DNA from: Giardia intestinalis
Taxonomy: Eukaryota
Length of the DNA: 64,000 bases
Strand: one strand, 5' to 3'
Assembly (NCBI GenBank): GCA_000002435.2
Contig: CM018793.1
Part shown: positions 8,778 to 59,357 of the stretch, in pieces
How positions within the stretch are numbered: position 1 is the stretch's first letter
Layout of the letters: each line of letters opens with the position of its first letter
The notes under the pieces: model-generated
Told to the model about the DNA's origin: nothing
Database searches by the model: none
What the model saw: only the letters and a program-made list of their open reading frames with translations
Translations under genes and position numbers: made by a program

Positions 8778-9013
8778 ACTCTCTCAGCTCCAAGACATGG
8801 ATACAATGCTTAGAATATTTCAGCTAGAACCCCAAGATCGCTTCTTAAGTGTAGTAACAATTTCGGCCCTAAAAGTCTGAACCTGCTGAACATAGCTATC
8901 ATCTAATGGTAACAGCTCATTTTGAAATCTAGACACTTCTCCAAATACTCCAAACATTGAATATTTTACAACCAACGCAGAGAGTGTGTCATACCATGGC
9001 GGGTACAAAACCC

Positions 9014-12000
9014 TTACTTGCGAAGAAGAATGTTTGCCCAGAGCCTCCCAACGGACCGAAGGTCTTTGCTCAAGAACTCTATGTCTTTGAGCCACGAGTC
9101 CACCGGTACTTCTAGAACATTTCCAATAACTACTAGAGCCTGCTCGATTAGATCCAACGGGGGCGAGAATACATGTAGAGATTTGGCATATTCTGTTGGT
9201 GGAAGAAGATCCATATAGGGCGTAATGCGAATGAGGTACGACTCGTCTGTGTATAACGAGTACGTAAGAATTTGTTCCTCATGTCTCTTTTCTGCATAAT
9301 TGAGGAGGGACAAGTAGATAGCATTGGACTTATTCGACAGCTGATCAGATTGAGCCACAATTGCAGCATAGAGGAGGCACACCCGCATAGAAAAATCACA
9401 TACAGTGTCCTTCTTAATAGGATGCTCCATTTCAGACAGCAGATGGACATAGCTGCTCACAAGCGCCTTCTTACAGATGGCGCGCAAGAAGTTTATGTAG
9501 ACCGTACGGATTATCCTGCAAGTAGACTGTGGGATATTAATGAGAACACCGGATTCTCTCATCAGAATCCACCCAGAGGCAGCAGTGTAGTTCATTATCG
9601 GCGATCTGTCATTGTACACGCCTGCGAGCCACTGCTGGGACGAAATGACGCCATCCTCTGTGTATGCAACATGGTTGAAGTAGGAACAGGCTGCCCCTAA
9701 AAGCAGGCCTAGAATTTGTGCGTCTGACAACAGGCCGTGAGAGCCTTTTTGGAGCATGGCTAGAAAGATGAATACTTGCCTTAGAACCAGGATAGACCGT
9801 GAGCTGCAGTAGTAGGTGCTGGAAACCTCATTGGTCGTGAGCTTATAGCAAAGATCTGAGAGAGACTGGGGAGGTATCTTATAGTGCGACAACTCAAAGT
9901 ATTGAATACAGGAAAAAAGAAGCCTGAAGAGCTTTTTATGGTTTGACACGTTACTCCTAAACGTGTACAACGTATGTTCTAGCTTCTCGGGCCTCTCTGC
10001 CTCCAACTTTTCATCTGAGACACTTCCATTCAAAATGATATTAGCCCAATAAGAGGCCATAGCCTCGTTGGTCATCTTCTTGAAGTTCTTGCTTACCTTG
10101 GCTGGAAAAAGCGTTCCAGTTGTGTAATCCTGGTAATCTTCGCATCCTTGAGAAAAGAAGCTATGAGGGTACTGGCTATACACATCTTCATTGATTTTCA
10201 TTATAAAATGCTCTGTGTCGACTATTTTTGATCTAGAAATAATAATGGACTTTAAAAACGCCTTTTCACTGGCAGAAAGCTCCTCGATGGTCTTGTAATT
10301 CTTCTCCGGTATCTGAGGCGTTGGGCAGGCAAGATACTGTCCTCGTACCTTTACGCGCTGGCCTATCTTAGCTTGTCGGACCATGTCGTCTGCACTGAAG
10401 CTGTCACGAACGAGCGAGTAGGACAGATGCCCCCCATCGTCTGTTATAGAATCCCGCGCACAAAACGTACCGGACAAGAAGGCGTCGACGGCATTATCAA
10501 TACTCTGCTCTATATGAGTGACCGATGAACGAAGGTCTGACAAATAGTTGTTAATGTTCATCGTCTCCTTCCTGCTCCTGTCGTCATACTTGTTCAGCAA
10601 AGGATTTCTGAGAGATGCGTTGTTCCTCTTTCCTATTAGATGACCAAAGAAGTAGTGGATTGTCTCCAAATGAATATCCTGGTCTCGAACAAAGAGTTGG
10701 TGCTGTATCTGTCTCATGAACATTTCTTTCAGATACAGTCTGATCAGCTTTTTCTGCGAGTTCGTGATAGCATCTGTGTTCAGAAGATCGATGGACAGGG
10801 CCAGAAGCTGCTGATGGGTCTCTTGCACTAAAAACCTAGATTTATACTGTAGCGGTGGCTTTATATCACCAGAGGGGGTATAATTGATCTCGTGTGCTGG
10901 CAAATAGAGAGCTATAATGTTGGGTATGTGCATTATCGTGTATGGATTCGAAGTAACCGTGTCGACTATCTCCTTGGTCTCAACTGCGTCACGCTTCAAT
11001 GCAAACACATTTGTTATCAAGTCTTCTGCCATCTTGTCGCTCCGGCACGGCTTTGCAAGACAGAAAAAGGTGTTATAGACATATTCCATGAAGCCGATGC
11101 GCGAACGCTGGTACTTTTCCAAGAGGATATGTGATATGTAATGCGACACGCTTATCTCTGCGTCCCTTAGGCACCGGATGAATAGTTTTTTGTACCCCTG
11201 AAGATCTCCGTCAGAGTGGGGCAGAGACAGTAGGGAGATAACTGTTTCAGTCACCGAATTGTATATCTCTGTAGAGAAGATAGGCGTTTTTATAAACCAG
11301 GCGTAGTAGACACGAATCAGAATGTCTTTCATTTGAGTCGTATCTGTCGCCACTGCTACTTCATTTTGATATGCAGCTGCATCAGTAAGAAAGAATAACT
11401 GCTGATTGCCCGCTCCCGTCTGTGTGATGTATATATTAAAGAGGTGTCTTGAGCGCTTATTGAACAAGATCTCGCAAAACCTGGCCGCCATCTTGGGTCG
11501 CACAACGGGTTCAAATGTTATTGTGCAGGTCACCAAATTGGCTAGGGGAGCGAAAATCCATATCTTTTGATACACCTTAACCGGTAGAAATACATTGAGG
11601 AAGGTAAGGAAACGTGTCAGTAGCGTCACTGAAAGATATTTCACATTAAGGACAGTAATTACTTCCAGCAGATTTTCTGTCCACTTCGTAAAAGTTGATT
11701 CTTGGCACAGCATATATAAGCACTTCCGCGATGTCACAGTGGACTCCAGAACCTTGAGGAACCTGCTGCGCACGGTGCAATTGATGAAGATTGTCATGAT
11801 TATGTTGAACACAGCGACAACGGAAAGAGCATGTATAAGTACATTGCTGGTGTATCCGGAAGAGGTAGAGACGTAGTTTGGCTCGGAGTTAAACTCATAG
11901 ATGAGACCCAGCAAATAGATCACACAAAGTGGGGGAATGCAGAGCTTTGCGTAGAAGGTTGCATGTACGGGGGAAAAGGCAAATGAAGTAAACAGGAGGC

Positions 12001-12322
12001 AGAGAAAGATGGGCTGGAAAATGTCGATAAAAAGAAATATCGTTCTAATATAGTAGTAAAACATCTCGGAGATAAAGACCCCAGCATTCTGCAGTAAGTT
12101 TAGAAACATGTATGTAATAATTGGAAGGTAGCTCAGTGTCACGATCGCAAAGAGCAGGGCGCTAGAGTAGGGATAGTGCACGGAGTCTTCGGAGCGTCTT
12201 GTGCGAAAGCTTAAAATTTGTCTTATCACCCGCGCATACCCAGCGATGTAAAATGCTAATGAGATGAATATCCACTCCTCAACTACCAGGCGCGCTATGC
12301 CGTGCGGCTCCAGCTCTGCCAT
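9014..12322 (-). CDS. polytopic membrane protein with large cytoplasmic C-terminal domain (hypothetical)
   Basis: 1102 aa ORF with the ATG at 12322-12320. The N-terminal ~250 aa contain about 8 hydrophobic helices. The following ~800 aa are hydrophilic and have no recognisable domain. Confidence 0.6.
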   Translation of the reverse strand: MAELEPHGIARLVVEEWIFISLAFYIAGYARVIRQILSFRTRRSEDSVHYPYSSALLFAIVTLSYLPIITYMFLNLLQNAGVFISEMFYYYIRTIFLFIDIFQPIFLCLLFTSFAFSPVHATFYAKLCIPPLCVIYLLGLIYEFNSEPNYVSTSSGYTSNVLIHALSVVAVFNIIMTIFINCTVRSRFLKVLESTVTSRKCLYMLCQESTFTKWTENLLEVITVLNVKYLSVTLLTRFLTFLNVFLPVKVYQKIWIFAPLANLVTCTITFEPVVRPKMAARFCEILFNKRSRHLFNIYITQTGAGNQQLFFLTDAAAYQNEVAVATDTTQMKDILIRVYYAWFIKTPIFSTEIYNSVTETVISLLSLPHSDGDLQGYKKLFIRCLRDAEISVSHYISHILLEKYQRSRIGFMEYVYNTFFCLAKPCRSDKMAEDLITNVFALKRDAVETKEIVDTVTSNPYTIMHIPNIIALYLPAHEINYTPSGDIKPPLQYKSRFLVQETHQQLLALSIDLLNTDAITNSQKKLIRLYLKEMFMRQIQHQLFVRDQDIHLETIHYFFGHLIGKRNNASLRNPLLNKYDDRSRKETMNINNYLSDLRSSVTHIEQSIDNAVDAFLSGTFCARDSITDDGGHLSYSLVRDSFSADDMVRQAKIGQRVKVRGQYLACPTPQIPEKNYKTIEELSASEKAFLKSIIISRSKIVDTEHFIMKINEDVYSQYPHSFFSQGCEDYQDYTTGTLFPAKVSKNFKKMTNEAMASYWANIILNGSVSDEKLEAERPEKLEHTLYTFRSNVSNHKKLFRLLFSCIQYFELSHYKIPPQSLSDLCYKLTTNEVSSTYYCSSRSILVLRQVFIFLAMLQKGSHGLLSDAQILGLLLGAACSYFNHVAYTEDGVISSQQWLAGVYNDRSPIMNYTAASGWILMRESGVLINIPQSTCRIIRTVYINFLRAICKKALVSSYVHLLSEMEHPIKKDTVCDFSMRVCLLYAAIVAQSDQLSNKSNAIYLSLLNYAEKRHEEQILTYSLYTDESYLIRITPYMDLLPPTEYAKSLHVFSPPLDLIEQALVVIGNVLEVPVDSWLKDIEFLSKDLRSVGRLWANILLRK

Positions 12323-12489
12323 GCGCCTGCCAATAAATAATCGGCCAAAAAAGAGGACACAATAGATTAAAAAGTAATGTAAGTCAGGAAAAATGCATAA
12401 AAATTATGAAATGCCATGAACGCTAAAACATCATAGGCACCTTTCCGAGGAGCTAGAAGCTAGAGGAATGCACGGCTTGCACAGCCGGG

Positions 12490-13827
12490 TTATACGATGT
12501 TGCGCTTAAACTCCAAGCCATTGCGCAGCACCGAAATGAGATTGTTCAGCTTTCCTCGGTCAAATCTATTGTACTTATGTATAACATACTCGCTCTCTTT
12601 CACGGTGAGTACTCGCCCAGACACACCGTCTATGGTTGTTATATCTCCATATGTGGCGTCTATCAATTCAACAAAGTGGAATGCATACTCGCAAAGAGCT
12701 CTAGGGCTCACTTTTGCGAAATTTTTGGGCAGTAACGCACACTCCTCCAACGGCGCTTGTACCATTAGCGTGAACTCCCCAGCCTTCAGTTTGGCCACAA
12801 CAGTTTCTCGCTTGATTCTCTCGGCGGTTCTGGTGTTTCTTAAAACATTGGTAATGTGAAAGCATGAAAACGGCAACAGCATGCAACCAACAGCACCATG
12901 CATCAAGCAAGAGAGTACATGAATGGGGACGGAATTGATGAGCCAAAGTGCCATAAACTTAACAGATATCTTCTTAGACCAGGCTAGGCTCAGCACAGGG
13001 AGACCAGGAAGCGTTAGGACTCGATAAATGGTTAGAGCATTAATGAGCGCAGTGTTAATGAGTGCCACGGATGTAAAAAAGAGAAACCCGTTGAACCACA
13101 GAAGATTGTTTCTGCCTATGCAGCTATTAGTCCAGATGCAGTGGTGATCAAAGTCCAGCACACACCTTGAGCAAACGCCGCAGTGATGAGAACGAGGCGG
13201 TCGAGGAACCATGCATGTAGAGCATACTTTTCTGGGGTACAAAAAGGTGTCATATGCACTGTCGGACTCCAGGTCCGAAGCCTCCTTTCGGGCGTCAACC
13301 TCCGGGTCTGTCACACCAACAGAATTGTTAGCACCAGTGCTAGATTTATCTGGTGCCACGGTTCCAGGATCCAGCAGGCATGCCAGCGCAAAGGAGGTTG
13401 CTGATAAAATATTAAAGGCAGGTACACTGACCATACGAACCTTACCAACTATACTAACCTTACTAGGGCTAGACGAGTAGGGGGATAAATTTAAAAGCGC
13501 TCGGGTCCATTGATACGCGCCTTCCTCTCCACTTCTTTCTGGGATGATTACTGTTAGAGGTCCTAGAATAGTTTTGAAAAAAGAATACATGGACATGATG
13601 AAGAGCAGCCAATAGAAACATACGACAAAGCAGTTGCGTCGCTGAAATAAGAGCTGGTCAAGGTTCAGAACACACACACCCTTCCTATTTCTCTCTAAAC
13701 ACAAAAGACATTGCCTCAACCTATAGAGGCGCGACGTACGCGGTGCTGCAGCTGCAATGTTGCCAATAAGCACCCCGAACGCAAGAGATAACGGCGCTGC
13801 TATGACTAGAAAGACCAATATGGCCAT
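12490..13827 (-). CDS. DHHC-type protein S-palmitoyltransferase (zf-DHHC)
   Basis: The cysteine-rich domain 'CSTCMVPRPPRSHHCGVCSRCVLDFDHHCIWTNSCIGRNN' matches C-x2-C-x9-HC-x2-C-x4-DHHC-x5-C and is flanked by 4 or more TM helices. The ATG at 13827 has an AT-rich upstream region. Confidence 0.8.
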   Translation of the reverse strand: MAILVFLVIAAPLSLAFGVLIGNIAAAAPRTSRLYRLRQCLLCLERNRKGVCVLNLDQLLFQRRNCFVVCFYWLLFIMSMYSFFKTILGPLTVIIPERSGEEGAYQWTRALLNLSPYSSSPSKVSIVGKVRMVSVPAFNILSATSFALACLLDPGTVAPDKSSTGANNSVGVTDPEVDARKEASDLESDSAYDTFLYPRKVCSTCMVPRPPRSHHCGVCSRCVLDFDHHCIWTNSCIGRNNLLWFNGFLFFTSVALINTALINALTIYRVLTLPGLPVLSLAWSKKISVKFMALWLINSVPIHVLSCLMHGAVGCMLLPFSCFHITNVLRNTRTAERIKRETVVAKLKAGEFTLMVQAPLEECALLPKNFAKVSPRALCEYAFHFVELIDATYGDITTIDGVSGRVLTVKESEYVIHKYNRFDRGKLNNLISVLRNGLEFKRNIV

Positions 13828-13857
13828 CGAATTTTATACATTTATAAAAAGTAGAGA
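13828..13857. promoter_or_regulatory. 30 bp AT-rich bidirectional promoter between divergent DHHC gene (-) and coiled-coil gene (+)
   Basis: The sequence 'cgaattttatacatttataaaaagtagaga' is the whole interval between two divergent ATGs (13827 minus, 13858 plus). This matches Giardia's short AT-rich initiator promoters. Confidence 0.5.
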
Positions 13858-16800
13858 ATGCCTCCAGATCCGAGCATGATCACAAAGCTTTTGCAGCAGG
13901 CCGAAGTGGCCTCGGCCCAGCTAGGAAGCACACAATCAAAGCTAAGTCTCAATAAAGCCACTAAGGTCTCAAAGCGGGCCACAACCACGATCACAACCAC
14001 GGCCACAGCAGTCCCCCCACCGGTGCTTCCAGAAGAGGAGGAGCACGGCGATGTCATGACATCAACGATGGAGCACCTTCTGCGAAACCGGGGATATGAG
14101 TATCTCACTGAACAGAATGAGTTAGCCCAAAAGAGCAAAGAGGACGCCCGCATTCTAGTTGAGCAAGGGGCGAAGGAGTTTTTCTATGGCAAAGATCTTC
14201 CGCCGATCAGCTTAACGCAAGACCCGGAACGCTACGTCAACAAGGTTTTATCAGATAACTCAGCGTTTTACTCGAACATCAGAGAGTCGTCTATCACCAA
14301 CAAAGGCAACACTAAACCAGGCTGCACTTTAGAGAACACTGTAAGGAAATGCAGCTCTGTTTTATCTGATGCATCGAGCAACCCTGACACAGTCTCAGCG
14401 AGCGGCACAACAGGATCTACTCATACAGGAAGGGCTTCTAAAGAACCAGGCGCAGTCAGGCAACGCAATCATCGCACACTCGCTACGTCTCTTAATATCG
14501 TACAGAAACTGCTTAACGAACCAGTCACTCGAAAGCAGTCTATATTTACACTTTCTCAGCGCCACTTCCTCACAGCAGACTTCCTCATGGGCGACATAAT
14601 CGATGCTTTAGCATCTGACTCCCGTGAGATGCGAGGTGCAATGGAGATGGCCAGGAAGATCTACACCTCAGCTTATTCAGATAACAAGTGTGGAGACTTT
14701 CTGCTGTCGGCGGAAATAGTACGCCTGAAGCAGGAGTTACACGAAACAAAAATAGCATTAGAAAAGCAGAGACAACGGGCAATTGTCTTGCTCACAGCCA
14801 TGGATGACCGGCGCAAGCTGGACCAAAAGAGAGCAGAAGAAACCGTCAAGAAGGTGGAGGAGCAGAGGGCCATAGAGGTCAATGCTGCAATGCAGCGGAC
14901 TCGTGACTACGGTGAGCAGGTGCGTATACTGCGGGCTGTCATTGAAGCAATTAAAAATGACCAGCAAGTGAAGGAAGTAGAGACCCTCAAGCAGAACCTG
15001 GATTCCTCGCGTGCGCTTACCAGGGAGTTGGAAGGCAAAAACGTGCAGCTCATGGAATCTCTTCAAACACTGCAGGCAGCGTACAGCGATCTTCAGATGG
15101 AGCATCAAGAGGCTGGAGCTGTAATAATGCAGCTGAGAGCAGAGCTAAAGGCTGCTAACAACGAGAGGGAGTACTGTAAGGGTTGTTCGAGTAGGATCAT
15201 AGAGAGGTCCAAATACGTCGGTTCTGAGATAACTAATCGCGTAGAGAGGCTGGAAGCTGTCAGTGCCATACTCTCTGGACTGCAGGTCAATAAGGAAAAG
15301 CTTCAGATGTCTATTGATAACCCAGGAGTGTCAGAGTATCTCTACGAAAAAGAGAAAGTAGTGTCTTCCTTCTTCGATGATTTAAGGGCAGCGGAGAAAG
15401 AGAAGCTGCACCTCCTGCAGCAGGAGCCGCCTGATGCTCAAGCCGAGCATCCCGAAGGACAGAACAAAGGGGCCTCTGTCGTCGACAGAGTAGACGAGTC
15501 GTATTACCTTATTGATCTCAGCAAGTTGGCACGCTCACTCTGTCTTATAGAAATGCGCCTGGAAGCGGCGCCAAAGCTTCAGCAGTTAGACGATGAAATA
15601 ACTGCTCTGCGGTACGAAAACAACAGGCTCAAGAACGTTGAGCAAGAGCTCACCGAGCTAAGGAAGGTATACCGATCTGTTATTTCTCGCACCCAGGCTA
15701 TAGAGCCCAAGGCTTCGGGTGCTGACACAGAAGCGGACCCCAAGGGGGACTCTACAAAGGAAACTCAGGGCGCTTCAGCCGGAAAGATAGAGGGGTCGCA
15801 CTTAGCATCAGCTCAGAACCAAGGTATCTACGAGAACTCTGTGACTCTTCTGCGCGAGCAGCCCTTGCAACTGCTTATATCTAAAAATTTCAAGATACAG
15901 CTAGTAGAAAGAGAAGACAGAGACAAGGAGGGATCAGAGCTTACAACAACACCAAACTACGTCTCCGCGGTTATTTTGAGCTTTCTCCGACACCTCTGCA
16001 TGTCCTCTTTCACATCAGATACGTCGATGTGCCGCCAGCTGACCGGGCGGTGCATGCCAAAAGCCGATGGCACACCCTATCCAACGACTTATCCCATACA
16101 GGCACTCTTTACGGGCTGGGTTCATGCGCAGTATCACATCGTTCCAGAAGATAGGAGGCAGTTTGAGGTCGAGCTACTTGTCAACAAGGTTTCTTGCTGT
16201 CTACAAGCCTTTCAATCTCTCACATCAGACATCTTTATTGAAGACGAGTCAATGCTGCTCTCCCTCGGCTCCCTACTATTAAACACCTCCATCAGCGCAG
16301 ACGAGGTGAGTTTCTTGATATACATTACCATTCTAACACACGGTGGCCTTCCAGACGCCCACCCTGTGCTTCTCCCTCACCTGGAGAAAGACGTAAAGAT
16401 AACCACAGCGTACATCTCCCTAAAACGAGCAATTAATATTATTCTTGCTACTGTCTCCAAAACTATTCAGAAGGGCTTTATCGAGTTCTTTATCCATCAA
16501 GGCCGGTCGACATCGCTGATAAAAGACGTCACGCTGGCCGACATCTCCTCTGGGAGGGTCTTCGTGGTCGACGTATACGAAAACCTGGATGGGGATGACC
16601 TTTATGACGCGGACATTCGTGAGATTTTTGCAGCCAACAAGGACTACTTCAGCGATACTGGAGCGGCGTCCTCCGCTACCGTTGGACTTTCCTCAAGTGT
16701 GGCATCACCCATCAAGAACCTACGGAACCGTGACGATCTAACACGAGTCTCCATCATTAACGCAAACTTCTTTTTGCTGTCCATGCTCAAGGCCTACCGG

Positions 16801-17664
16801 ACAGAGGTTATGACGCGCCTTGAAGCTACCAGACTGATGTATGCGGGAAGTCTTCTGGAGACCTCTACATTGTTGCGCTCTTCTAAGATGACCGCTCTTC
16901 CGGACACCATGAAATTCAGGATTGTGAGGGAGATAATAAGGATGATTAACCCCATCTGTGACGATAGCATGATTGATGCTGCTTATTTGGATGTCATTTG
17001 GAGGAGCCCGAGCGCCAACTGGAGCATCCTTGTCGACGCGTGCAAAACACGTGGCGTGTTTGCAAGCGCATTGAAGTTCCCGCCCATCGAGGTCATGATG
17101 CCTTTGGTGGGAGGCTACTATACAGGTGCTACAAACCCTGGGCTGTCATCTAACCCGGGTGTTGCTCCAGCAAGCATAGCGGCGTATGCAAATGACTACG
17201 ATACTATACTAAGCCAAGCAAGAAGCCTTTTTGACAAAGCAAAAGTGGCCCTTCTGCACCTGTCCAGCGCAATGGGAACGGAATCGGCTGTTTGCACCAG
17301 GTCCATTATTCAGGAAGTATCAAACATAGAGAGGACAGCGCTTACGTTTGACAATTTAGGCCTTGTCATTAGTGCCCTCAAAGCAACCCTGCTCTATGCA
17401 GTAGAGCTATCCTTCTCCGTCATTTCTGCCTGTGGAAGAGACTATGGAATAGAGTCTCTGTCTGTGCGTAAATCCCTTGCAGAAGGCAAGGGCGTGTCTC
17501 TTCGCAAGGTGGCCCGACAGCCGACAGAGATATGGATCGACAGCCTTTATTACCTCACAGGGGCCCTTGCAGCCTCCTTGGGGTGGGAGACGGACTCCGG
17601 CATGTGCGTGGCGAGCATGTCTATGAAACGGAAGCTATCATCTCGTGGAGAGTCGCGGGCGTAG
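13858..17664 (+). CDS. large coiled-coil protein (hypothetical, 1268 aa)
   Basis: The ATG at 13858 has an A-rich context. There are extensive heptad-like segments (about aa 290-620) rich in E/K/R/L/Q, and the frame is consistent over 3.8 kb. Confidence 0.7.
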   Translation: MPPDPSMITKLLQQAEVASAQLGSTQSKLSLNKATKVSKRATTTITTTATAVPPPVLPEEEEHGDVMTSTMEHLLRNRGYEYLTEQNELAQKSKEDARILVEQGAKEFFYGKDLPPISLTQDPERYVNKVLSDNSAFYSNIRESSITNKGNTKPGCTLENTVRKCSSVLSDASSNPDTVSASGTTGSTHTGRASKEPGAVRQRNHRTLATSLNIVQKLLNEPVTRKQSIFTLSQRHFLTADFLMGDIIDALASDSREMRGAMEMARKIYTSAYSDNKCGDFLLSAEIVRLKQELHETKIALEKQRQRAIVLLTAMDDRRKLDQKRAEETVKKVEEQRAIEVNAAMQRTRDYGEQVRILRAVIEAIKNDQQVKEVETLKQNLDSSRALTRELEGKNVQLMESLQTLQAAYSDLQMEHQEAGAVIMQLRAELKAANNEREYCKGCSSRIIERSKYVGSEITNRVERLEAVSAILSGLQVNKEKLQMSIDNPGVSEYLYEKEKVVSSFFDDLRAAEKEKLHLLQQEPPDAQAEHPEGQNKGASVVDRVDESYYLIDLSKLARSLCLIEMRLEAAPKLQQLDDEITALRYENNRLKNVEQELTELRKVYRSVISRTQAIEPKASGADTEADPKGDSTKETQGASAGKIEGSHLASAQNQGIYENSVTLLREQPLQLLISKNFKIQLVEREDRDKEGSELTTTPNYVSAVILSFLRHLCMSSFTSDTSMCRQLTGRCMPKADGTPYPTTYPIQALFTGWVHAQYHIVPEDRRQFEVELLVNKVSCCLQAFQSLTSDIFIEDESMLLSLGSLLLNTSISADEVSFLIYITILTHGGLPDAHPVLLPHLEKDVKITTAYISLKRAINIILATVSKTIQKGFIEFFIHQGRSTSLIKDVTLADISSGRVFVVDVYENLDGDDLYDADIREIFAANKDYFSDTGAASSATVGLSSSVASPIKNLRNRDDLTRVSIINANFFLLSMLKAYRTEVMTRLEATRLMYAGSLLETSTLLRSSKMTALPDTMKFRIVREIIRMINPICDDSMIDAAYLDVIWRSPSANWSILVDACKTRGVFASALKFPPIEVMMPLVGGYYTGATNPGLSSNPGVAPASIAAYANDYDTILSQARSLFDKAKVALLHLSSAMGTESAVCTRSIIQEVSNIERTALTFDNLGLVISALKATLLYAVELSFSVISACGRDYGIESLSVRKSLAEGKGVSLRKVARQPTEIWIDSLYYLTGALAASLGWETDSGMCVASMSMKRKLSSRGESRA

Positions 17665-26017: not shown

Positions 26018-27610
26018 ATGACTAATGGACCTAGCAGGGCCGCAATGTTGCTACTAGTTCTCTGCTTTTTGATGAGCGCCCTCGCCGCGCAACGCACTAA
26101 ACAACCCACATCCGACTGCGGAGTCGCAAACTGCGCCCAGTGCAACGCGGACGGCAGGACGTGTGATCAGTGCAGCGAGGGGTACAACCTCAACCAGGAG
26201 AAGACCCAGTGCACCAAGGCGTGCGCGGTCGCAAACTGCGCCCAGTGCAACGCGGACGGCAGGACGTGTGATCAGTGCAGCGAGGGGTACAACCTCAACC
26301 AGGAGAAGACCCAGTGCACCAAGGCGTGCGCGGTCGCAAACTGCGCCCAGTGCAACGCGGACGGCAGGACGTGTGATCAGTGCAGCGAGGGGTACAACCT
26401 CAACCAGGAGAAGACCCAGTGCACCAAGGCGTGCGCGGTCGCAAACTGCGCCCAGTGCAACGCGGACGGCAGGACGTGTGATCAGTGCAGCGAGGGGTAC
26501 AACCTCAACCAGGAGAAGACCCAGTGCACCAAGGCGTGCGCGGTCGCAAACTGCGCCCAGTGCAACGCGGACGGCAGGACGTGTGATCAGTGCAGCGAGG
26601 GGTACAACCTCAACCAGGAGAAGACCCAGTGCACCAAGAACCCAGAAGCGCGATGCAATACTCCCAACTGTAAGACCTGTGACAGCCCCAAAACAGACAG
26701 TGAAATCTGCACTGAATGTAATAATGGCAACTACCTCACCCCGACAAAGCAGTGCACGCAGAGCTGCGGAACAATAGGAAGCTACTACAACGGAGACAAA
26801 GTGTGCGAGCCCTGTGATCCTAGCTGTGCTGCGTGCATCACAAAGGGACCAGCGAAGTGCACGCTGTGTCCTCCCGGGAAGAGGCTCCAGTACACAGATG
26901 AAGGAGCCACTCAGAACGGCGGATCCTGCGTAGATGAGTGCAAGCCTGAAGGAGGAGCTAGCGGATGCGAGACCTGCGGAGCCACCATCGGAGGGACAAA
27001 GTATTGCTCGAAGTGCAGCACATCCACGGAGGTCCCCGTCAACGGGGTCTGTACAGCAGACAATGCCCGCGCAGCTGCGTGCAAGGTGAAAGATGGCAAG
27101 GGAGGGTGCACTACGTGTGAGAGTGGATACTTCCTCCAAGACGGCGGTTGCTACAAACTCGGTAGACAGCCCGGTGAGCAGATATGCACAGCAGCCAGTA
27201 GCGCTGGTAAGTGCGAGACGTGCGCCAATAGTCTTCAGCCCAATAATGGAGCATGCCCCTCGTGTCACTCGACCTGTAAGACATGTCGTGATGCTAATTC
27301 TGCAAATGCTTGTACAACGTGTGCAGCTGGGTACTATATGGTCGGATCAGCAGCTGGACCATGCACTTCGTGTGACAGCAACAGTGGAAGTGTCAAGGGA
27401 GTTGCTGGCTGCATGAGCTGCGCTCCTCCATCGTCTAGTACTGGCTCCGTCCTTTGCTACCTCATGAACGGTGACAGTGCCGGCGGAAGCACGAACAAGA
27501 GCGGCCTTAGCACAGGCGCCATCGCAGGCATTTCTGTCGCAGTCATCGTTGTCGTGGGGGGTCTTGTCGGCTTCCTCTGCTGGTGGTTCCTCTGCAGGGG
27601 CAAGGCGTAG
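26018..27610 (+). CDS. variant-specific surface protein (VSP) with five tandem 35 aa repeats
   Basis: There is a signal peptide, pervasive CxxC motifs, and a C-terminal TM 'GLSTGAIAGISVAVIVVVGGLVGFLCWWF' followed by the invariant 'CRGKA' and a stop. AGTAAAC lies 14 nt after the stop. An alternative start at the second ATG (26045) gives the typical 'MLLL' VSP N-terminus. Confidence 0.9.
   Translation: MTNGPSRAAMLLLVLCFLMSALAAQRTKQPTSDCGVANCAQCNADGRTCDQCSEGYNLNQEKTQCTKACAVANCAQCNADGRTCDQCSEGYNLNQEKTQCTKACAVANCAQCNADGRTCDQCSEGYNLNQEKTQCTKACAVANCAQCNADGRTCDQCSEGYNLNQEKTQCTKACAVANCAQCNADGRTCDQCSEGYNLNQEKTQCTKNPEARCNTPNCKTCDSPKTDSEICTECNNGNYLTPTKQCTQSCGTIGSYYNGDKVCEPCDPSCAACITKGPAKCTLCPPGKRLQYTDEGATQNGGSCVDECKPEGGASGCETCGATIGGTKYCSKCSTSTEVPVNGVCTADNARAAACKVKDGKGGCTTCESGYFLQDGGCYKLGRQPGEQICTAASSAGKCETCANSLQPNNGACPSCHSTCKTCRDANSANACTTCAAGYYMVGSAAGPCTSCDSNSGSVKGVAGCMSCAPPSSSTGSVLCYLMNGDSAGGSTNKSGLSTGAIAGISVAVIVVVGGLVGFLCWWFLCRGKA
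26116..26640 (+). repeat. 5 x 105 bp perfect tandem repeat inside VSP coding region
   Basis: The unit encodes 'CAVANCAQCNADGRTCDQCSEGYNLNQEKTQCTKA'. Copies 2-5 are nucleotide-identical in the visible sequence, for example 'gtgtgatcag' recurs every 105 nt. Confidence 0.9.
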
Positions 27611-28664: not shown

Positions 28665-29219
28665 ATGGTAGGCCCATTTGACAGTCTTGCAGATGCATTA
28701 ATACGACAGATGAACCTCCAGTTGGAGGACATGCGGCACAATGGAGAATACTCTCTCCTTCTAAGGATCATTCGGGGCCAGACCTCATTAACAGACAGAG
28801 TTGCCAAGAACCAAGAAGCACTATCTGTTGCCCGGAAGAAAGCAGGGGCAATTTTGACTGTATCACGACCTAAGCCACAAACTGACCCTGGATTTATTCA
28901 GAGAACGCAAAAAGCCCTTGAAGAAACACAGGACGCTATCCAGGAGACTCAGCGAAATATAGAGCGTCTCGAAGCCCAGCTAAAAGATGTTACTGCCAAG
29001 ACTGCAAACAAGGATGAATTACGACGTGCTGCATTGACTCTAGCAGACAGAGAAAATGCGGGTAGGGAGGAGCTCGTTGAACTTTATCACAGCATATCGG
29101 GAGTACACTGGGATCAGCCCGACTTGGGATATGTGCTTAGCGAGGAGATTGCAAAACCCATCCGTTTCAGCTCCTGTGTCGATGCCACCAACCAGCTCTG
29201 GGAAATGATTAACATGTAG
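28665..29219 (+). CDS. small coiled-coil + C-terminal globular protein (hypothetical; Spc24/Spc25-like architecture is speculative)
   Basis: The ATG is at 28665. Residues 60-130 are heptad-rich ('TQKALEETQDAIQETQRNIERLEAQLKDV') and are followed by a compact C-terminal domain. The gene is convergent with the helicase gene. Confidence 0.5.
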   Translation: MVGPFDSLADALIRQMNLQLEDMRHNGEYSLLLRIIRGQTSLTDRVAKNQEALSVARKKAGAILTVSRPKPQTDPGFIQRTQKALEETQDAIQETQRNIERLEAQLKDVTAKTANKDELRRAALTLADRENAGREELVELYHSISGVHWDQPDLGYVLSEEIAKPIRFSSCVDATNQLWEMINM

Positions 29220-31383: not shown

Positions 31384-33771
31384 TTACTTTACAGGGCCAC
31401 TTGCATCATCCTTGTTGCTCATTTTCTTTTCAAAAAGTGCATATAAATTGCTTATGCTTTCAATCTGTTTCATCAATATAGAATTTCTAATAAGAATGTT
31501 ATCATATCTTGATAACTCGGCTGTAAGCTTATTAAAGACCATCACATCCTCTGGTATTAGTGGATCCGGTGATATCAGTGAAGCAGATTTATCGGCGGTC
31601 TCTGCCTCTACCTCCAGGGTGTCATGTAAAAGAGCTACAGAACCAGTGGCTCTTGAGCAGTTTTCAGCGTTCTGGATCGTATCCTTTGGCGGCTTCCTGC
31701 ACAGCTGATAGCTAGATTTGCATGGCTTACAGCAGCACATAAAGCACCTGACACACAGTGGGCAAAGCCTCACAAAAAGGGGGACAAAAATGATGAGTAG
31801 GATGATTGACATGATAAGCAAAAGAATTCGCCCAACCCTCGTCGTAAAAAACAGCCTTACAATTTCAAAGAAGCCCTTCCCCTTCAGCTTTTCAAAGAAC
31901 TCTATTACGTCCCGGAAAACTGTGTTTTTCCACGACGGAACTTCAGGATCAGCAAAAACAAAGTCGTCGAGACACATGTAAAGCTTGTTATCTTCACGCG
32001 TTTCATAGCGTGTTGCTCCCTCTGGGCAGACGCATGGAACTGCCAAAATGTTGGTGCTATTATTTTTCTTTCCCTTTCCACAATCTACAGAAATATTAGT
32101 AAATGGTATGTACTGAGGGATGAAGAGATCGTCTGCGCTTACCCCATCTTCCGCTGCCTTCTCCTCTGTGGATATGCACACGCCTCTTATGGACGAGAAG
32201 TATGGACGAGAATGTCCATACTTAGCTAGGCAGTCGACCGGCCTGCATGACGGAATATCACCCATTTCCATGGTCTGATCACATGAGCAGGCGACTAGGC
32301 ATACAAGGGTGGATGTTTGTGGAGCTGTAAATCGTATGTCTGGGTCTACACACTGTACAGGAGAGTCTATCCTCACGTAGGTTCCTGGCGCATATCCAGA
32401 TACTGTCCCTAGCCAAGAGATAGTGGCTTCGCTAGTAGCCGCCTGGGACTCGCTTTCGGGCCCCGCGGCTTGGAGAAATTGTATACTACACCTTCCTGGG
32501 CTCAAAGCAAGAGATTCGGCAACGATGACATTTGCCGGGCTCGTCAGCAAAAAGCTGTAGATGGCTGTCTTATCCACGTCAATGAAGTGCTTGATAGGCT
32601 TTCCTGTATAAGTAAAGGACCCAACGATTGGAGAGCTCGAAATGCACCGAAGAAGCTTGACTGTCACTACTCCCGGCATCATGCCTTCGTTCCCAACTGT
32701 AATGTTCAAGATGGCCTGCCTGCGGACGAGACTCACTACCGATTGAAGCACAACCGGCTTGCCTATGAGTTGTGTGAGCGTGACACTGTCTGCTGAAATG
32801 TGTAGACTAAATGCCAATAGAAGAATATCATCGCTGCATGCATACTTTACGGTTTGTGCTGAATCGCCACTCATGTTACACCCCTCTACACAGTTGCAAT
32901 TGCTTGGCAAATAAGGTGAATCATCCCTGTAGTTTAGTAGCTGATCGGCAGGAAACACGTCAGGGGTTGGCGGACTGCCTATGAATGTCAGCTCATTCGT
33001 CCTGGTGCTAGAGTCTGAAGCTATAACGGCTCTCTTCCAGACGCTCGGGAGCATGCCCAGTAAGTTTGTGCCACCAAACCCGACAACATCAAAAGGCACT
33101 GCCATGCTATTGAGCACTCCCTCGTTTTCCCTGTGTATCACGTAGCAGCCAAAGCAGAACATGTTATTTGTGGAGCCTGTGGAAACAACCACGGTCTGCA
33201 TGTATGAATTTCCATCTATGACAGGTCCCTTCTTGTTGTGCTCGTTGAAGATGACGTCATACTTGTTAACCGTTCCGTCTTCCTCCTCAATGGTTATGAC
33301 AGCAGTCACTGTGTATGATAAACGTGGGAGACCTGGCTTCCACACTTTGTGTGGGTCGACCTGCTGCAGTTTGCGAACCTTGTTCCCATAGGGCGTTCTT
33401 TTGCAGTGGCCGATATTTGTATCCGTGAAGTCTGGGCATCGAAGGGTAGTGATTTCTAAGGTCTCTGCAGCATTATACGCATCGAAGCGCTTGGCATAAT
33501 CTATGACTGCGCGCGCTTCCATCTTGATGAGGACCTTCACCAGGGACTTAAGCTCCCATCGACTGACAACGTGCCCATCCTTATCGACGATCTGGTAAAT
33601 CTTAGACGTGGTATAGGAAAGCTGCTTGTCGTAAGCATCTGACTTAATCTCGCCATAGATGGAGACGTACTGCTTTCCGTCAGACGTTATGATCTCACTA
33701 TTGATGCCTTGAGTCGGCTCGGTAGCAAGCGCTGACCACAAGCAAACAGCCCAAATGCACGATCTAATCAT
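31384..33771 (-). CDS. type-I membrane glycoprotein with Cys-rich membrane-proximal region and poly-Cys/basic cytoplasmic juxtamembrane segment (hypothetical)
   Basis: Signal peptide 'MIRSCIWAVCLWSALA'. The ectodomain is ~640 aa with many N-x-S/T sites. There is a single TM 'ILLLIMSIILLIIFVPLFV', followed by 'RLCPLCVRCFMCCCKPCK' and a ~110 aa tail. Confidence 0.65.
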   Translation of the reverse strand: MIRSCIWAVCLWSALATEPTQGINSEIITSDGKQYVSIYGEIKSDAYDKQLSYTTSKIYQIVDKDGHVVSRWELKSLVKVLIKMEARAVIDYAKRFDAYNAAETLEITTLRCPDFTDTNIGHCKRTPYGNKVRKLQQVDPHKVWKPGLPRLSYTVTAVITIEEEDGTVNKYDVIFNEHNKKGPVIDGNSYMQTVVVSTGSTNNMFCFGCYVIHRENEGVLNSMAVPFDVVGFGGTNLLGMLPSVWKRAVIASDSSTRTNELTFIGSPPTPDVFPADQLLNYRDDSPYLPSNCNCVEGCNMSGDSAQTVKYACSDDILLLAFSLHISADSVTLTQLIGKPVVLQSVVSLVRRQAILNITVGNEGMMPGVVTVKLLRCISSSPIVGSFTYTGKPIKHFIDVDKTAIYSFLLTSPANVIVAESLALSPGRCSIQFLQAAGPESESQAATSEATISWLGTVSGYAPGTYVRIDSPVQCVDPDIRFTAPQTSTLVCLVACSCDQTMEMGDIPSCRPVDCLAKYGHSRPYFSSIRGVCISTEEKAAEDGVSADDLFIPQYIPFTNISVDCGKGKKNNSTNILAVPCVCPEGATRYETREDNKLYMCLDDFVFADPEVPSWKNTVFRDVIEFFEKLKGKGFFEIVRLFFTTRVGRILLLIMSIILLIIFVPLFVRLCPLCVRCFMCCCKPCKSSYQLCRKPPKDTIQNAENCSRATGSVALLHDTLEVEAETADKSASLISPDPLIPEDVMVFNKLTAELSRYDNILIRNSILMKQIESISNLYALFEKKMSNKDDASGPVK

Positions 33772-34051
33772 ATAGTAACTATTTGCAGATCCACACGCTC
33801 ACCCGTCCATAGCGGTTCGTTTCCGGATTGCTCGTTTCCAGTTGTAAATTAATTTAAAGTGAATTCTTCTCAAGTTTTTACGCGGTGTCGAGAATGATGA
33901 GACGTGTTCCTCTCTCCTACAGACTCCCTGGGGATGCTATGTACACCTTACTGATTTACTTTCCTTTTCTCAAGGGCCATTGTGTCGTGCCATTGTGTTT
34001 TTGCGGGGCTTAGTGGTTCCCAGTGCAGTCGCCCGGATCCGGCAGGACCTA

Positions 34052-35285: not shown

Positions 35286-35672
35286 ATGAAGTTTGTACCT
35301 CATGAACGAGGCGGCCTGGGGCCAGATCTAGACCGTGAATGCACACGTGAAGCTCGCGAGAAGCGGACAAAACAACAGGAGTATGCAAGGCGTCTCCGCG
35401 AAACGATCCAGGATCTTCCCAAGCGGGTGGAGAAGCCTCCACGCAAAACGGAGGCCGAGTTGAAACGCGAGAGGCAGCAGGAGTATGCGAAGAACATACC
35501 AAGACCAGCTGTACGTCCTCAAACTGACAGAGAAACCATTTCCCTCCCTCCTCTTAGAAAGTCTACAACACAGGAAGAGAGGCCCATTGTAAAGCTGATG
35601 GACATGCTTGAGCAGCACGACAAGATGCTGAAAGAGTGCGCAGAAATCTACGCATACTTCGGCCTGCAGTGA
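35286..35672 (+). CDS. small highly charged (K/R/E-rich) protein, hypothetical
   Basis: The 128 aa ORF exactly fills the 35252-35689 gap between two minus-strand genes. The ATG at 35286 is preceded by 'aatgaagttagaATG'. Composition resembles nuclear or ribosome-associated basic proteins. There is no homology evidence. Confidence 0.4.
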   Translation: MKFVPHERGGLGPDLDRECTREAREKRTKQQEYARRLRETIQDLPKRVEKPPRKTEAELKRERQQEYAKNIPRPAVRPQTDRETISLPPLRKSTTQEERPIVKLMDMLEQHDKMLKECAEIYAYFGLQ

Positions 35673-35689: not shown

Positions 35690-37537
35690 CTAGGGCTCCA
35701 TTATATACCCTTTAGTGTACGTCATTGTGAGAACTATAATCCCGCAAATCAATACTGTTGCAGCAATACTCGCAGAAATAAGTCCACTTTCAAAGTAACT
35801 TTCTTTTATAAATATGTATTGATACTCCTTGTGAATATCCGCAGCGGGCGCTCCAGAGTCAGTGGGGCGGAAGGAAGTCTCGGCATATACGCCGGTACCG
35901 TTTTTGTAAGCTTCCAGGACACTTTTCAGCTTGCTAGAACAGCTTCCTGTCACGTAGTACTCGATATCCTGCTTAGGAACGTTTTCAGACGAGTATACTC
36001 CCCGCTGATACATTGTATCGCAAGTAAATACTAGTTCTTTGCCCCTCTTGTACTCTGTCTCCCCAGACATTCGCACAAAAAGCCTTTCCAAAGTGATTGC
36101 TGAAATGCTAGTGCCAGAGTGGATGTAGATGTCTAAAGTAACTTCTGTCATGCCCTCAGCAACGGGGCATTCCGCCGGGGATCTTCCGATGGGTCGTAAT
36201 ATGGCCAAATTAGTTGCCACGACAAGGGTAGCCCTGGAAAAGCATGTTCGCTGAACACTCCCAGGATAGGGAATAATGGTCTCGGGAAGAGCTTTTCCTG
36301 AAAAGTACTGTAAGGTGAATGAACCTGTCAACGACAGATTGCCAGCCAGCAGCCTATTCATATCTCTGAGGCATGTAACAGTGGTGCATGGAAGGAACTG
36401 CTTTGTCCGTTTGAATGTAAAGTTTGAATTTTCGAGGGATATCCTAATAGTAGGTGCAAGTAACGAGGTGTCCTGTGCAGTTGTAAGCTCTCCGCAGACG
36501 ATGATTTTATGGTAGTCTATTAGGTCGTTGCAGATTGAAGCGGAATCACGTTCAAGAAGCACAGCGAGGACCCCAAAGTAGACCTGCACTATAACAGACT
36601 TATAGCACTTAGAGTACCCTGCGCTGGCCTTGACAGCAGAGACAATCCCTGCTTGAGCAACTGTGCTTGGGGTCACCACTTCTACCTGAGGATCTGAAGA
36701 TGAGACCGCTGTGGGGGTCTTCGACTTTGTCGTACCAGGAATGGGCACATAGACAATCAAGGTTGCAGACCACGCTGTCTCCACCTTGAGGATATCAATA
36801 AGCTCTATGCATCTATCGTATTTGTTTGAATTAGTAAGCCAGTCGTTACCAGGGTAGCGAACCCCGTTGCATGAGTAGCAAAATTGAGTTACTAAATTAT
36901 GGGTATACGGTCTGATAAAGTTGGGTAGTTGAGCATTTGTGCCATGGGATGATAATGTTATGTTTAGATAAGCATCCGGTAGTGTATCCAGATGAATCAA
37001 CATGAAGGCCTCATAAGTATTCTGCAAATTAGTGTCCTTGGGCAGGTCGCAGTCCGAAGGAGTCACTAAAAAGCATATCTCCTTATTGAAATAATCCACC
37101 GAGACCCTAGGATCCGTCCAGCAAGCAGAGTTATTCGTGAGAGTGTAGTAGACATTGGTTGTTACTAACGAGACCTTCGAGCTAGCGTAGTTGAGTTCCA
37201 CCTGGACCACTGTAGACCCAGTGAGATTTGTCTGGCAATCTGAAGTGGCTGTTTTATCTGTTGGACAGGTAAATGTTAGTAAGTTAGGCTGCTCCATACT
37301 CCAAAACGGAACACTTATCGATGAAAATGTGTACGACCCTACCATGGCAGTGGCCGTCATCCCTGTTGTGCCCTGGAGGATGGAGCAGTCGGCGGTCTGG
37401 TGATTTAGTGGCAGCGGCCAGACTGTAATTGCTAATGAATGCTTGTTAAGCAAAATATTAACGGTGGTGTTGGGGGAAAAGCAGCTTAGAGCACTTATGG
37501 TGGCAAACAGGCCCTTTAAAGCCAAGAAGATGAGCAT
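35690..37537 (-). CDS. type-I membrane glycoprotein (hypothetical, 615 aa)
   Basis: N-terminal hydrophobic signal 'MLIFLALKGLFATISALS', a ~560 aa ectodomain with many NxS/T sites, a C-terminal TM 'ISASIAATVLICGIIVLTM' and an 8 aa tail. Confidence 0.6.
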   Translation of the reverse strand: MLIFLALKGLFATISALSCFSPNTTVNILLNKHSLAITVWPLPLNHQTADCSILQGTTGMTATAMVGSYTFSSISVPFWSMEQPNLLTFTCPTDKTATSDCQTNLTGSTVVQVELNYASSKVSLVTTNVYYTLTNNSACWTDPRVSVDYFNKEICFLVTPSDCDLPKDTNLQNTYEAFMLIHLDTLPDAYLNITLSSHGTNAQLPNFIRPYTHNLVTQFCYSCNGVRYPGNDWLTNSNKYDRCIELIDILKVETAWSATLIVYVPIPGTTKSKTPTAVSSSDPQVEVVTPSTVAQAGIVSAVKASAGYSKCYKSVIVQVYFGVLAVLLERDSASICNDLIDYHKIIVCGELTTAQDTSLLAPTIRISLENSNFTFKRTKQFLPCTTVTCLRDMNRLLAGNLSLTGSFTLQYFSGKALPETIIPYPGSVQRTCFSRATLVVATNLAILRPIGRSPAECPVAEGMTEVTLDIYIHSGTSISAITLERLFVRMSGETEYKRGKELVFTCDTMYQRGVYSSENVPKQDIEYYVTGSCSSKLKSVLEAYKNGTGVYAETSFRPTDSGAPAADIHKEYQYIFIKESYFESGLISASIAATVLICGIIVLTMTYTKGYIMEP

Positions 37538-58200: not shown

Positions 58201-59357
58201 TGCTAAGGTGCACCAGTACAAGTCCTACAGTGTGGCATGATTCGTGAGTCAAAAGGTAGGATGCTTGGGCTGATTGGCGTGTCTCCTCGGGACCAAATAC
58301 AGCTAGGACCAAAGGTCATGAACGAATGCTATTCGATTCCCTTATCAGCAGATGGGGGTCAACTGCTCTAGTATCCACAAGAGGCTATAGAGGGTACTGG
58401 ACCAGGCATCCGGCCAATTGCTGGCAAATCAACACAACCTCCTTGGATCTCCATTCTTTCCTCACAGGCATCTACATGTAGGAAGCTCTGAGGACCTAGA
58501 GCCCTACACTAACAGGCTCAAGGTATTGCACTCCTAGGTGCTTCCATTAGTGGTGGTAGTGATAGCACCAGGATGATCCAGAAGGGGGATAGAAATCCTG
58601 CCCCGTTAGCTCAAGAAATGGCACAGTTTGAGCAGGGTTTCCTCCTTGTTTAAATTTGGGAGTACTAGCCTACGCCCTCTGACCATCTGACGCCTTATCA
58701 TGCGATGGGGAATCTTAATAGTATCCACTACAAAAAGCCAGAAATAGCACCATGCACACCCAACAAACCAGAGCGTCTCATAGGCTAATCTACACTGATT
58801 CGCACTTCCACGGACCCTAGCGACCACTGTAACCGTCTCTCGGGATCTTGCAAGGGACTGTCCTTGAGCGCGATTCCTCCATGACAACCAGAAGTCGCAG
58901 ACATAGTCCAAAGGGATGAGAATACTATAGAGGCGGAGAAGAGATCATCTGCGCACGGGGGTCCGCAGGGGCCCGACCCGCACAGGGAAGGCGTAAGAGG
59001 CCAATTCCCCAGGAATGCAGAGACATTAAGAGAGGAACCAGCAGTGGGCCCATAACACAGGGAGGTCACCCGGGCCGCCCCCTGATTGGCCACAGGGTAG
59101 AGGAGCAGCATGCGCGCGGGACAGCATTGCTACTTATTTTTGAATTTTCTGTTTCCCTGCATGTTGTGCAGGGGTCCGCGGTGGGTGCTAGACTATAGTT
59201 AGTAGATGCTTTCGGCATTAACAACTATCTCTTGTACAACAATATTATCAAAAAGGGATTTCTTTAAGCTGGCAGCATAGCAATAACCGAATGGAGCTTT
59301 TTAGCTTTGGGTATCTTTGCTAGTAGGATTCTTGATAGTGGATTAAGAAGAATCTCA

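Follow-up and report, generated by a model that had tools for sequence, protein, structure and literature searches.

Among markers of plasmogamy, only the gamete fusogen HAP2/GCS1 is widely conserved; in Plasmodium it is a target for transmission-blocking vaccines. A functional trait of HAP2 is the presence of one or more hydrophobic loops, or a helix, at the tip of domain II, stabilized by a conserved Glu-Arg salt bridge. We have studied a gene of Giardia intestinalis, GL50803_16629, as a possible member of this family. It lies in a window of 64,000 nt of contig CM018793.1 (GCA_000002435.2; assemblage A, WB), which is the whole stretch of DNA analyzed here. The database annotation of the gene is 'hypothetical protein', and an initial annotation made from the letters of the window had proposed a fusogen-like protein, perhaps of the HAP2/GCS1 type. 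The predicted fold of the product suggests a new and highly divergent member of the class II/fusexin group, with a sequence that is unrecognizable as HAP2. In our view the gene probably codes for a strongly diverged fusexin, i.e., a class II membrane-fusion protein, and most likely for the HAP2/GCS1 orthologue of Giardia.

The distribution of Hap2 in metamonads has been surveyed by Salas-Leiva et al. (2021), who listed it for Carpediemonas, Kipferlia and Monocercomonoides, and did not find it in Giardia A, Giardia B, G. muris, Spironucleus, Trepomonas or Trichomonas. Because of its presence in the first three, both loss and extreme divergence are possible in the diplomonads, and we treat these as open alternatives. 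The same survey listed Gex1/KAR5 for Giardia. The statement in the initial annotation that Giardia retains genes for meiosis and gamete fusion thus holds for the meiosis genes and GEX1/KAR5, and fails for Hap2 as judged by that survey. A search of the accessible literature found no report of a HAP2 or fusexin in Giardia, and the accessible part of a paper on structure-based annotation of Giardia (PMC6312909) mentions neither this gene nor HAP2. Sex in Giardia has been debated for some 20 years. There are homologues of meiosis genes, population-genetic indications of recombination, and fusion of nuclei in the cyst, but no gametes have been seen (PMC8700996).

Predicted fold of the ectodomain

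Along its whole length the product of the open reading frame (ORF) matches XP_001705982.1 (GL50803_16629) of G. intestinalis WB C6 without a difference. The ORF is a genuine gene and did not arise by chance, because it is intact in at least six lineages and the ratio of nonsynonymous to synonymous substitution rates (dN/dS) is low over the whole gene, with values of 0.13 (assemblage A vs E) and 0.065 (A vs B). The protein comprises a signal-like N-terminus, an ectodomain of 631 residues, one transmembrane (TM) helix, a poly-Cys/basic stretch and a tail of about 110 residues ending in ...DASGPVK. By hydropathy and inspection this is a type-I topology, as found in the HAP2 functional family. The maximum of a 19-residue Kyte-Doolittle window is 3.33, at residue 649, and the mean over the TM helix is 3.3. 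Signal-peptide cleavage would occur after residue 16, as read from the translation and not with a dedicated predictor.

The anatomy set out in the initial annotation, i.e., a signal peptide, a Cys-rich membrane-proximal ectodomain, a single TM helix and a tail of about 110 residues, is borne out by translation and hydropathy. The strings that it quoted are all found, CLVACSCDQTMEMGDIPSCRPVDCLAKYGH at residues 491-520, DCGKGKKNNSTNILAVPCVCPEGATRYETRED at 563-594 and RLCPLCVRCFMCCCKPCK at 668-685. The ectodomain contains five NxS/T sequons and 23 Cys. Sixteen of these Cys are invariant in all seven members of the family, an even number that would permit eight disulfides.

The structure was predicted using AlphaFold2 (AF2). 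A first run with five near-identical sequences gave a predicted local distance difference test score (pLDDT) of 31 and was discarded; helices in the cytoplasmic tail appear in this run, at low confidence. The second run was confined to the ectodomain and used seven sequences, with those of G. muris and a more distant diplomonad-like relative (P0035) added, and with no HAP2 sequence or template. The resulting model has a mean pLDDT of 58.5 and a predicted template modeling score (pTM) of 0.35. Of its residues, 240 have a pLDDT of 70-90, one third fall below 50, and two of the five models reached only about 40.

The model was compared with known structures using Foldseek. Against the PDB, ranks 1-11 are all occupied by fusexins, with alignments extending over 534-585 columns. 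The E-values were 3.7e-11 for archaeal Fsx1, 5.2e-10 for Arabidopsis HAP2, 8.5e-9 for that of C. merolae and 1.6e-7 to 2.4e-6 for that of Chlamydomonas. The next matches are hantavirus Gc, alphavirus E1, La Crosse Gc and Rift Valley fever virus Gc. Two independent structure-search programs agree in placing HAP2 and the fusexins first and the viral class II fusion proteins next. The predicted structure is that of a three-domain class II protein, with a β-sandwich domain I, an elongated domain II and an immunoglobulin (Ig)-like domain III. Prediction and structural search, which the initial annotation had suggested as a check, therefore return HAP2 and fusexins as the top matches. We conclude with moderate-to-good confidence that the ectodomain would adopt a class II/fusexin fold, with HAP2 as its closest known relative. 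It is this predicted fold, and not the sequence, that supports assignment to the HAP2 type.

Two regions of the ectodomain deserve separate description. Residues 92-149 contain a loop between C112 and C123 (PDFTDTNIGH) that includes hydrophobic residues, together with the invariant residues E103, R133, D139 and H141. They may form the domain II tip and include a candidate fusion loop, but this region is modeled with low confidence (pLDDT 25-35). The Cys-rich membrane-proximal module at the position of the stem has 10 invariant Cys and the motifs KYGxxRPYFS, NxLAVPCxC and MCLxD in the family alignment. It is modeled with pLDDT values of about 70-75 over much of its length, and sequence searches turned up no counterpart.

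Conservation and expression of the gene

The relatives of the WB protein detected by homology searches are confined to Giardia and similar diplomonads. Sequence identity is 86% in assemblage E, 78% in assemblage B and 70-72% in two G. intestinalis-like lineages (P0004 and P0005) that are more distant than assemblage B and come from read-archive assemblies only. It falls to 40% in G. muris (GMRT_13353) and 29% in P0035, which comes from a Logan assembly. An exhaustive HMMER search of 1.84 billion (1.84e9) representatives at E ≤ 1e-3 returned only Giardia-like proteins, including GMRT_13353 and one Logan protein. A word-indexed search with the seven-sequence profile found no new members, and a metagenome scan found no further relatives.

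The order of genes, B-box / GL50803_16629 / DEAD-box helicase / SWIRM / glycogen phosphorylase, is common to the window, G. muris and other assemblages, and these family members are therefore positional orthologues. The two G. intestinalis-like lineages share this local order (locus L005, Logan assembly ERR3333382). The gene is under strong purifying selection and is vertically inherited. The ectodomain is its most constrained part, and constraint is relaxed in the cytoplasmic tail (Table 1).

We examined the expression of the gene in the RNA-seq time course of encystation published by Rojas-Lopez et al. (2021) (Table S1, log2 counts per million (CPM); PMC8700996). In series 1 the values are 5.05 (0 h), 5.01 (3.5 h), 5.30 (7 h), 5.59 (10.5 h), 6.19 (14 h), 6.33 (17.5 h), 6.73 (21 h), 7.17 (24.5 h), 7.29 (28 h) and 7.73 (31.5 h), reaching 7.84 in cysts and returning to 5.28 in excysted trophozoites. 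Series 2 and 3 likewise rise monotonically, to 6.70 and 6.82 in cysts, and are reset once the cells have excysted. Across the three replicate series the transcript thus stands at 5.0-5.4 in trophozoites, climbs to 6.7-7.8 in cysts and is again 5.3 in excysted cells, corresponding to a 2.6- to 7-fold increase between trophozoite and cyst that begins at about 7-10 h. Meiotic-related genes are switched on from 10.5 h and peak in cysts (PMC8700996), and the induction of GL50803_16629 runs parallel to this cascade. The GEX1/KAR5 homologue GL50803_5536, a gene of nuclear fusion, is included among the encystation-upregulated genes used for Myb2-motif analysis in supplementary file 6 of the same study.

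A candidate promoter element was found upstream of the ATG, comprising tandem GGAAAC sequences at -48 and -63. Nowhere else in the window, which contains 22 single sites, do two GGAAAC/GTTTCC sites lie within 40 nt of each other. The tandem arrangement is kept in assemblages A, E and B and in P0005, and a single copy is present in a contig from a Giardia-like diplomonad (L001, described below). G. muris has an inverted pair (TGGAAAC...GTTTCCA) at this place, and the surrounding intergenic regions of G. muris and L001 are otherwise unalignable. The tandem GGAAAC is a candidate cis-element for late-encystation induction. The Myb2 site (CWACAG) was rejected as a regulator. A single copy is found at -151 in A and E and at -142 in B, P0005 and G. 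muris have none, and the site is no more frequent here than in the window as a whole (1.4 per kb).

Arguments for and against a HAP2-type fusogen

The cytoplasmic side of the TM helix carries a feature that has been described for other members of the HAP2 family. Many HAP2 orthologues, though not all, have a Cys-rich polybasic stretch just past the TM helix (PMC8777248). GL50803_16629 has such a stretch, with 8 Cys and 6 Lys or Arg in residues 669-700, and a tail of 110 residues follows the motif. By analogy, the juxtamembrane Cys are probably S-palmitoylated. All G. intestinalis lineages have 6-8 juxtamembrane Cys, whereas G. muris has 7 and P0035 has 1. The initial annotation took a poly-Cys/basic motif as a hallmark of class II fusogens. 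The motif is indeed present, but it lacks specificity for class II fusogens, and the family itself includes a member without the cluster.

Taken with the fold, we count in favor of a HAP2-type protein its architecture, the syntenic and constrained gene, the timing of expression toward the cyst and the presence of Hap2 in related fornicates. If GL50803_16629 is such a protein, it would be inserted as a type-I membrane protein with domains I, II and III on the cell surface, held by one TM anchor. Its Cys-rich/polybasic cytoplasmic face would be S-palmitoylated, which might modulate localization or fusion, a role also suggested for other HAP2s (PMC8777248). Contact with a partner membrane would lead a hydrophobic loop at the domain II tip to insert into it, and the disulfide-stapled C112-C123 loop is the candidate for this. 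By analogy the protein would then trimerize, and domain III and the stem would fold back to draw the two bilayers together. It would most plausibly act in a cyst-associated fusion step of a cryptic sexual or parasexual cycle, i.e., in cell-cell fusion (plasmogamy). We regard as possible, with some doubt, the broader idea that diplomonads generally keep an ultra-divergent HAP2 that sequence inventories have missed, with genuine plasmogamy around the cyst or excyzoite stage and not diplomixis only.

A number of observations weigh against the identification of GL50803_16629 as HAP2, and the most direct come from sequence comparison. The Pfam model PF10699.14 is a full-length HAP2-GCS1 model of 515 positions covering the whole ectodomain, with a gathering score of 27.4 bits. 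With this model Arabidopsis HAP2 reached 513 bits and that of T. cruzi 373 bits, and neither the window protein nor any of its six relatives (0/7) was matched at E ≤ 10. Further comparison used the PDB ectodomain sequences 5OW3, 6E18 and 5OW4 together with 120 further HAP2s. A local HAP2 hidden Markov model (HMM), run with filters off, scored the Giardia proteins at about 0 bits, lower than shuffled decoys. Alignment by hhalign to HAP2 profiles of 3 and 14 sequences gave E-values of 0.11-0.28, not above decoys; the real score was equaled by 13 of 60 shuffled and 40 of 60 block-shuffled decoys. Similarly, phmmer and profile (hmmsearch) searches of PDB sequences matched no HAP2 chain. From the PF10699.14, HMM and hhalign outcomes we conclude that, where membership of the HAP2 family is defined by sequence, GL50803_16629 tests as lying outside it. 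Of the initial HAP2/GCS1-type proposal, the structural searches favor the fold, while the profile comparison with PF10699 that it had called for, like every other profile search, revealed no HAP2 similarity in any of the seven proteins.

Three collinear resemblances to HAP2 were noted by eye, of AAETLEITTLRCPD to KPxE..TT.kCepD, of PADQLLNYRDDS to CLADQLEDYRSSD, and of HISADSV..IGKP..NITVGNEG..C.S to L.ADdi..SPGKI..NTG..CS. The same three segments are selected by hhalign, but since decoys shuffled by column or by block score just as high, the resemblances are not counted as evidence. In UniProt the orthologues from P15 (GLP15_2454) and GS_B (GSB_152581) are named 'Generative cell specific-1/HAP2 domain-containing protein', and those of WB and DHA2 'Uncharacterized'. 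We rejected the label as independent evidence since it is not reproducible with PF10699.14. An emulated old-style HAP2 model of 48 columns could be aligned solely with the CKSxxxSC run of the cytoplasmic side, where its scores were negative. The label may therefore have come from a fortuitous Cys-rich match to an old model of 50 residues, and may be right for the wrong reason.

The structural and biological data also contain points on the opposing side. The AF2 model is of moderate confidence only, and its pLDDT is just 25-35 in both the would-be fusion loops (residues 92-148) and the region of the classic HAP2 motif of about 50 residues (199-289). TM-scores to HAP2 are low, at 0.14-0.28, because the relative placement and orientation of the domains are not reproduced in the model. 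P0035, the most distant relative, has kept the basic character of the juxtamembrane stretch and lacks the Cys cluster. Cell fusion has never been observed in Giardia (PMC8700996). Lastly, the timing of expression is suggestive and not specific, since hundreds of genes share late-encystation induction; 598 are upregulated at 21 h (PMC8700996). The examination of expression that the initial annotation recommended is thus positive for induction in late encystation and cysts, with that limit.

These same weaknesses form the case for an artefact, i.e., that the class II likeness has arisen from a low-confidence AF2 model based on seven sequences, the true fold being different. The modest mean pLDDT and pTM, the two poor models of five, the third of residues below 50, the failure of the first run with five sequences and the low TM-scores would all be expected on this explanation. 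We nevertheless think it quite unlikely. A less drastic alternative is that GL50803_16629 is a lineage-specific surface or cyst-stage glycoprotein with class II-like β-sandwich and Ig domains that does not fuse membranes and serves in adhesion, cyst-wall assembly or signaling, its kinship with HAP2 being remote or its fusion function lost. Against this stand the full-length alignments to fusexins at ranks 1-11, top PDB and viral matches that are all class II fusogens and include no adhesin or cyst-wall family, the strongest purifying selection at the expected position of the tip, and a juxtamembrane Cys/basic motif like that described for HAP2 (PMC8777248). We therefore judge this alternative unlikely.

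The ancestor of Giardia might instead have captured a viral class II envelope glycoprotein and domesticated it, so that the gene is not a vertically descended HAP2. Hantavirus Gc, alphavirus E1 and bunyavirus Gc are significant structural matches, sequence methods detect the family in Giardia-like diplomonads only, and surveys find no Hap2 in diplomonads, all of which favor capture. Among predicted viral structures (BFVD) the leading matches, all class II Gc or E1, have weaker E-values than the cellular fusexins. This origin seems to us very unlikely. The reading of GL50803_16629 as a highly diverged HAP2-type fusexin is the one that we prefer. If diplomonads do keep an ultra-divergent HAP2, its induction in late encystation and cysts along with the meiotic genes would mean that Giardia has a complete sexual cycle with the fusion of two cells, so far unobserved. 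A cyst-stage surface fusogen could then be examined, likewise, as a target for transmission-blocking vaccines. A single-copy, constrained and encystation-induced gene with a HAP2-like fold offers a specific target for the question of sex in Giardia. More generally, where HAP2 is recorded as absent from a fast-evolving lineage, the reason may lie in what sequence searches are able to detect, and this bears on reconstructions of sex in early eukaryotes.

The locus, and comparison with known systems

The features of the gene are collected in Table 1.

Table 1. Coordinates in the window of GL50803_16629, its predicted parts, its candidate promoter element and the DHHC gene
Feature	Residues	Coordinates	Strand	dN/dS	Basis or remark
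GL50803_16629, complete coding sequence	1-795	31384..33771	-		ATG start, 795 residues + stop; ORF list
Tandem GGAAAC, candidate promoter element (GGAAACGAGCAATCCGGAAAC; GGAAACGAGCAATCCGGAAACGA)		33819..33839	-		-48 to -68 from ATG
Signal peptide, putative (MIRSCIWAVCLWSALA)	1-16	33724..33771	-		hydrophobic N-terminus, then polar mature end
β-rich N-terminal ectodomain, assigned to class II domains I + II	17-339	32755..33723	-		boundaries approximate
Candidate domain II tip/fusion-loop region	92-149	33325..33498	-	0.03-0.05	lowest dN/dS in gene; invariant residues
Ig-like domain III, predicted	340-455	32407..32754	-		invariant N361, C376, S378, C428
Cys-rich membrane-proximal module, at stem position	456-612	31936..32406	-	0.04-0.06	family alignment
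Helical membrane-proximal segment, predicted	613-647	31831..31935	-		AF2 helices 615-649 (ectodomain numbering 599-633)
Single TM helix (RILLLIMSIILLIIFVPLFVR)	648-668	31768..31830	-		Kyte-Doolittle
Poly-Cys/polybasic juxtamembrane motif (LCPLCVRCFMCCCKPCKSSYQLCRKPP)	669-695	31687..31767	-	0.29	candidate palmitoylation site
Cytoplasmic tail, conserved C-terminal helix (ILIRNSILMKQIES..LY)	696-795	31387..31686	-	0.24-0.41	alignments
DHHC palmitoyltransferase gene		12490..13827	-		

The initial annotation had pointed to a DHHC palmitoyltransferase gene 18 kb upstream. The gene and the distance (17.6 kb) are correct but the side is not, as it lies 3' to, i.e., downstream of, GL50803_16629 in the orientation of the latter. 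The arrangement of the two genes was compared in L001, a 14.4-kb contig from a Giardia-like diplomonad (Logan SRR31929897; G+C content 54%) with a uS5 gene product 79% identical to that of Giardia, and genes at 8477-9868, 10001-12424, 12429-13034 and 13059-14189. Here the HAP2-like gene is head-to-head with the DHHC orthologue (34% identity over 438 residues) across a gap of 132 bp, and is followed directly by a HORMA-domain gene and then a Cdc20-like WD40 gene. The HAP2-like protein of L001 has one juxtamembrane Cys. As the contig combines this adjacency with uS5 and a counterpart of the 1268-residue protein encoded at 13858-17664 of the window, the linkage in Giardia could be what is left of an ancestral adjacency. 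Beyond synteny there is no support for a functional link, the genes being adjacent in L001 alone, where the protein is without the Cys cluster. In G. muris the DHHC gene does not lie within 10 kb.

The second type-I membrane protein that the initial annotation had seen nearby (35690-37537, - strand) is present, and it is not kin to the HAP2-like protein. It has 615 residues, with a signal-like N-terminus, a TM helix at 584-606, a tail of 9 residues and 20 Cys. It matches nothing in Pfam at E ≤ 10 and has no sequence likeness to the HAP2-like protein. A gene of 615 residues occupies the equivalent position in L005 (1204-3051). Small conserved ORFs flank the locus on either side. At 28665-29219 (+) a coiled-coil protein of 184 residues gives a sub-threshold Spc24-like match (E 4e-4, 21 bits vs a cutoff of 25.3), and at 35286-35672 (+) there is a basic protein of 128 residues; the small genes at the equivalent place in G. 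muris (129 residues) and L005 (128 residues) match JHY (PF15261). The window also contains two genes for variant-specific surface proteins (VSPs), at 26018-27610 (+; PF03302, 2.9e-98) and 59307-60617 (+; PF03302, 3.4e-26). G+C content is raised at about 26-28 kb (0.574) and at 60-64 kb (0.56-0.58).

We may now compare GL50803_16629 with the known systems. The known HAP2/GCS1 structures include those of Chlamydomonas (5MF1, 6E18 and 6DBS), Arabidopsis (5OW3), T. cruzi (5OW4) and C. merolae (7S0K), and domain 3 from P. berghei (7LR3). The Giardia protein differs from these in having no detectable sequence similarity or PF10699 match, in the addition of a strongly conserved Cys-rich membrane-proximal module of about 150 residues, in fusion loops that are not identifiable with confidence, and in an organism that has no known gametes or cell fusion. 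With archaeal Fusexin1 (Fsx1, 7P4L) sequence identity in the structural alignment is 10-14%. Fsx1 is encoded in mobile elements, whereas the Giardia gene is in a conserved eukaryotic neighborhood.

The overall fold class predicted for GL50803_16629 is shared with the viral class II proteins (alphavirus E1, bunyavirus and hantavirus Gc, flavivirus E), to which the PDB and BFVD matches are significant but weaker. The scores are worse than those to cellular fusexins, there is no polyprotein, companion protein or viral context, and the gene is vertically inherited under purifying selection in a cellular genome. With the VSPs and high-cysteine membrane proteins (HCMPs) of Giardia itself the protein has in common a type-I topology and a Cys-containing ectodomain. 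Membership of that class was ruled out, as the protein has no match to PF03302 while the VSPs of the window score 1e-26 to 1e-98. It also lacks the CRGKA tail, its ectodomain has 23 Cys in 631 residues, and it is encoded not by a variable multigene family but by a single-copy gene with syntenic orthologues across species.

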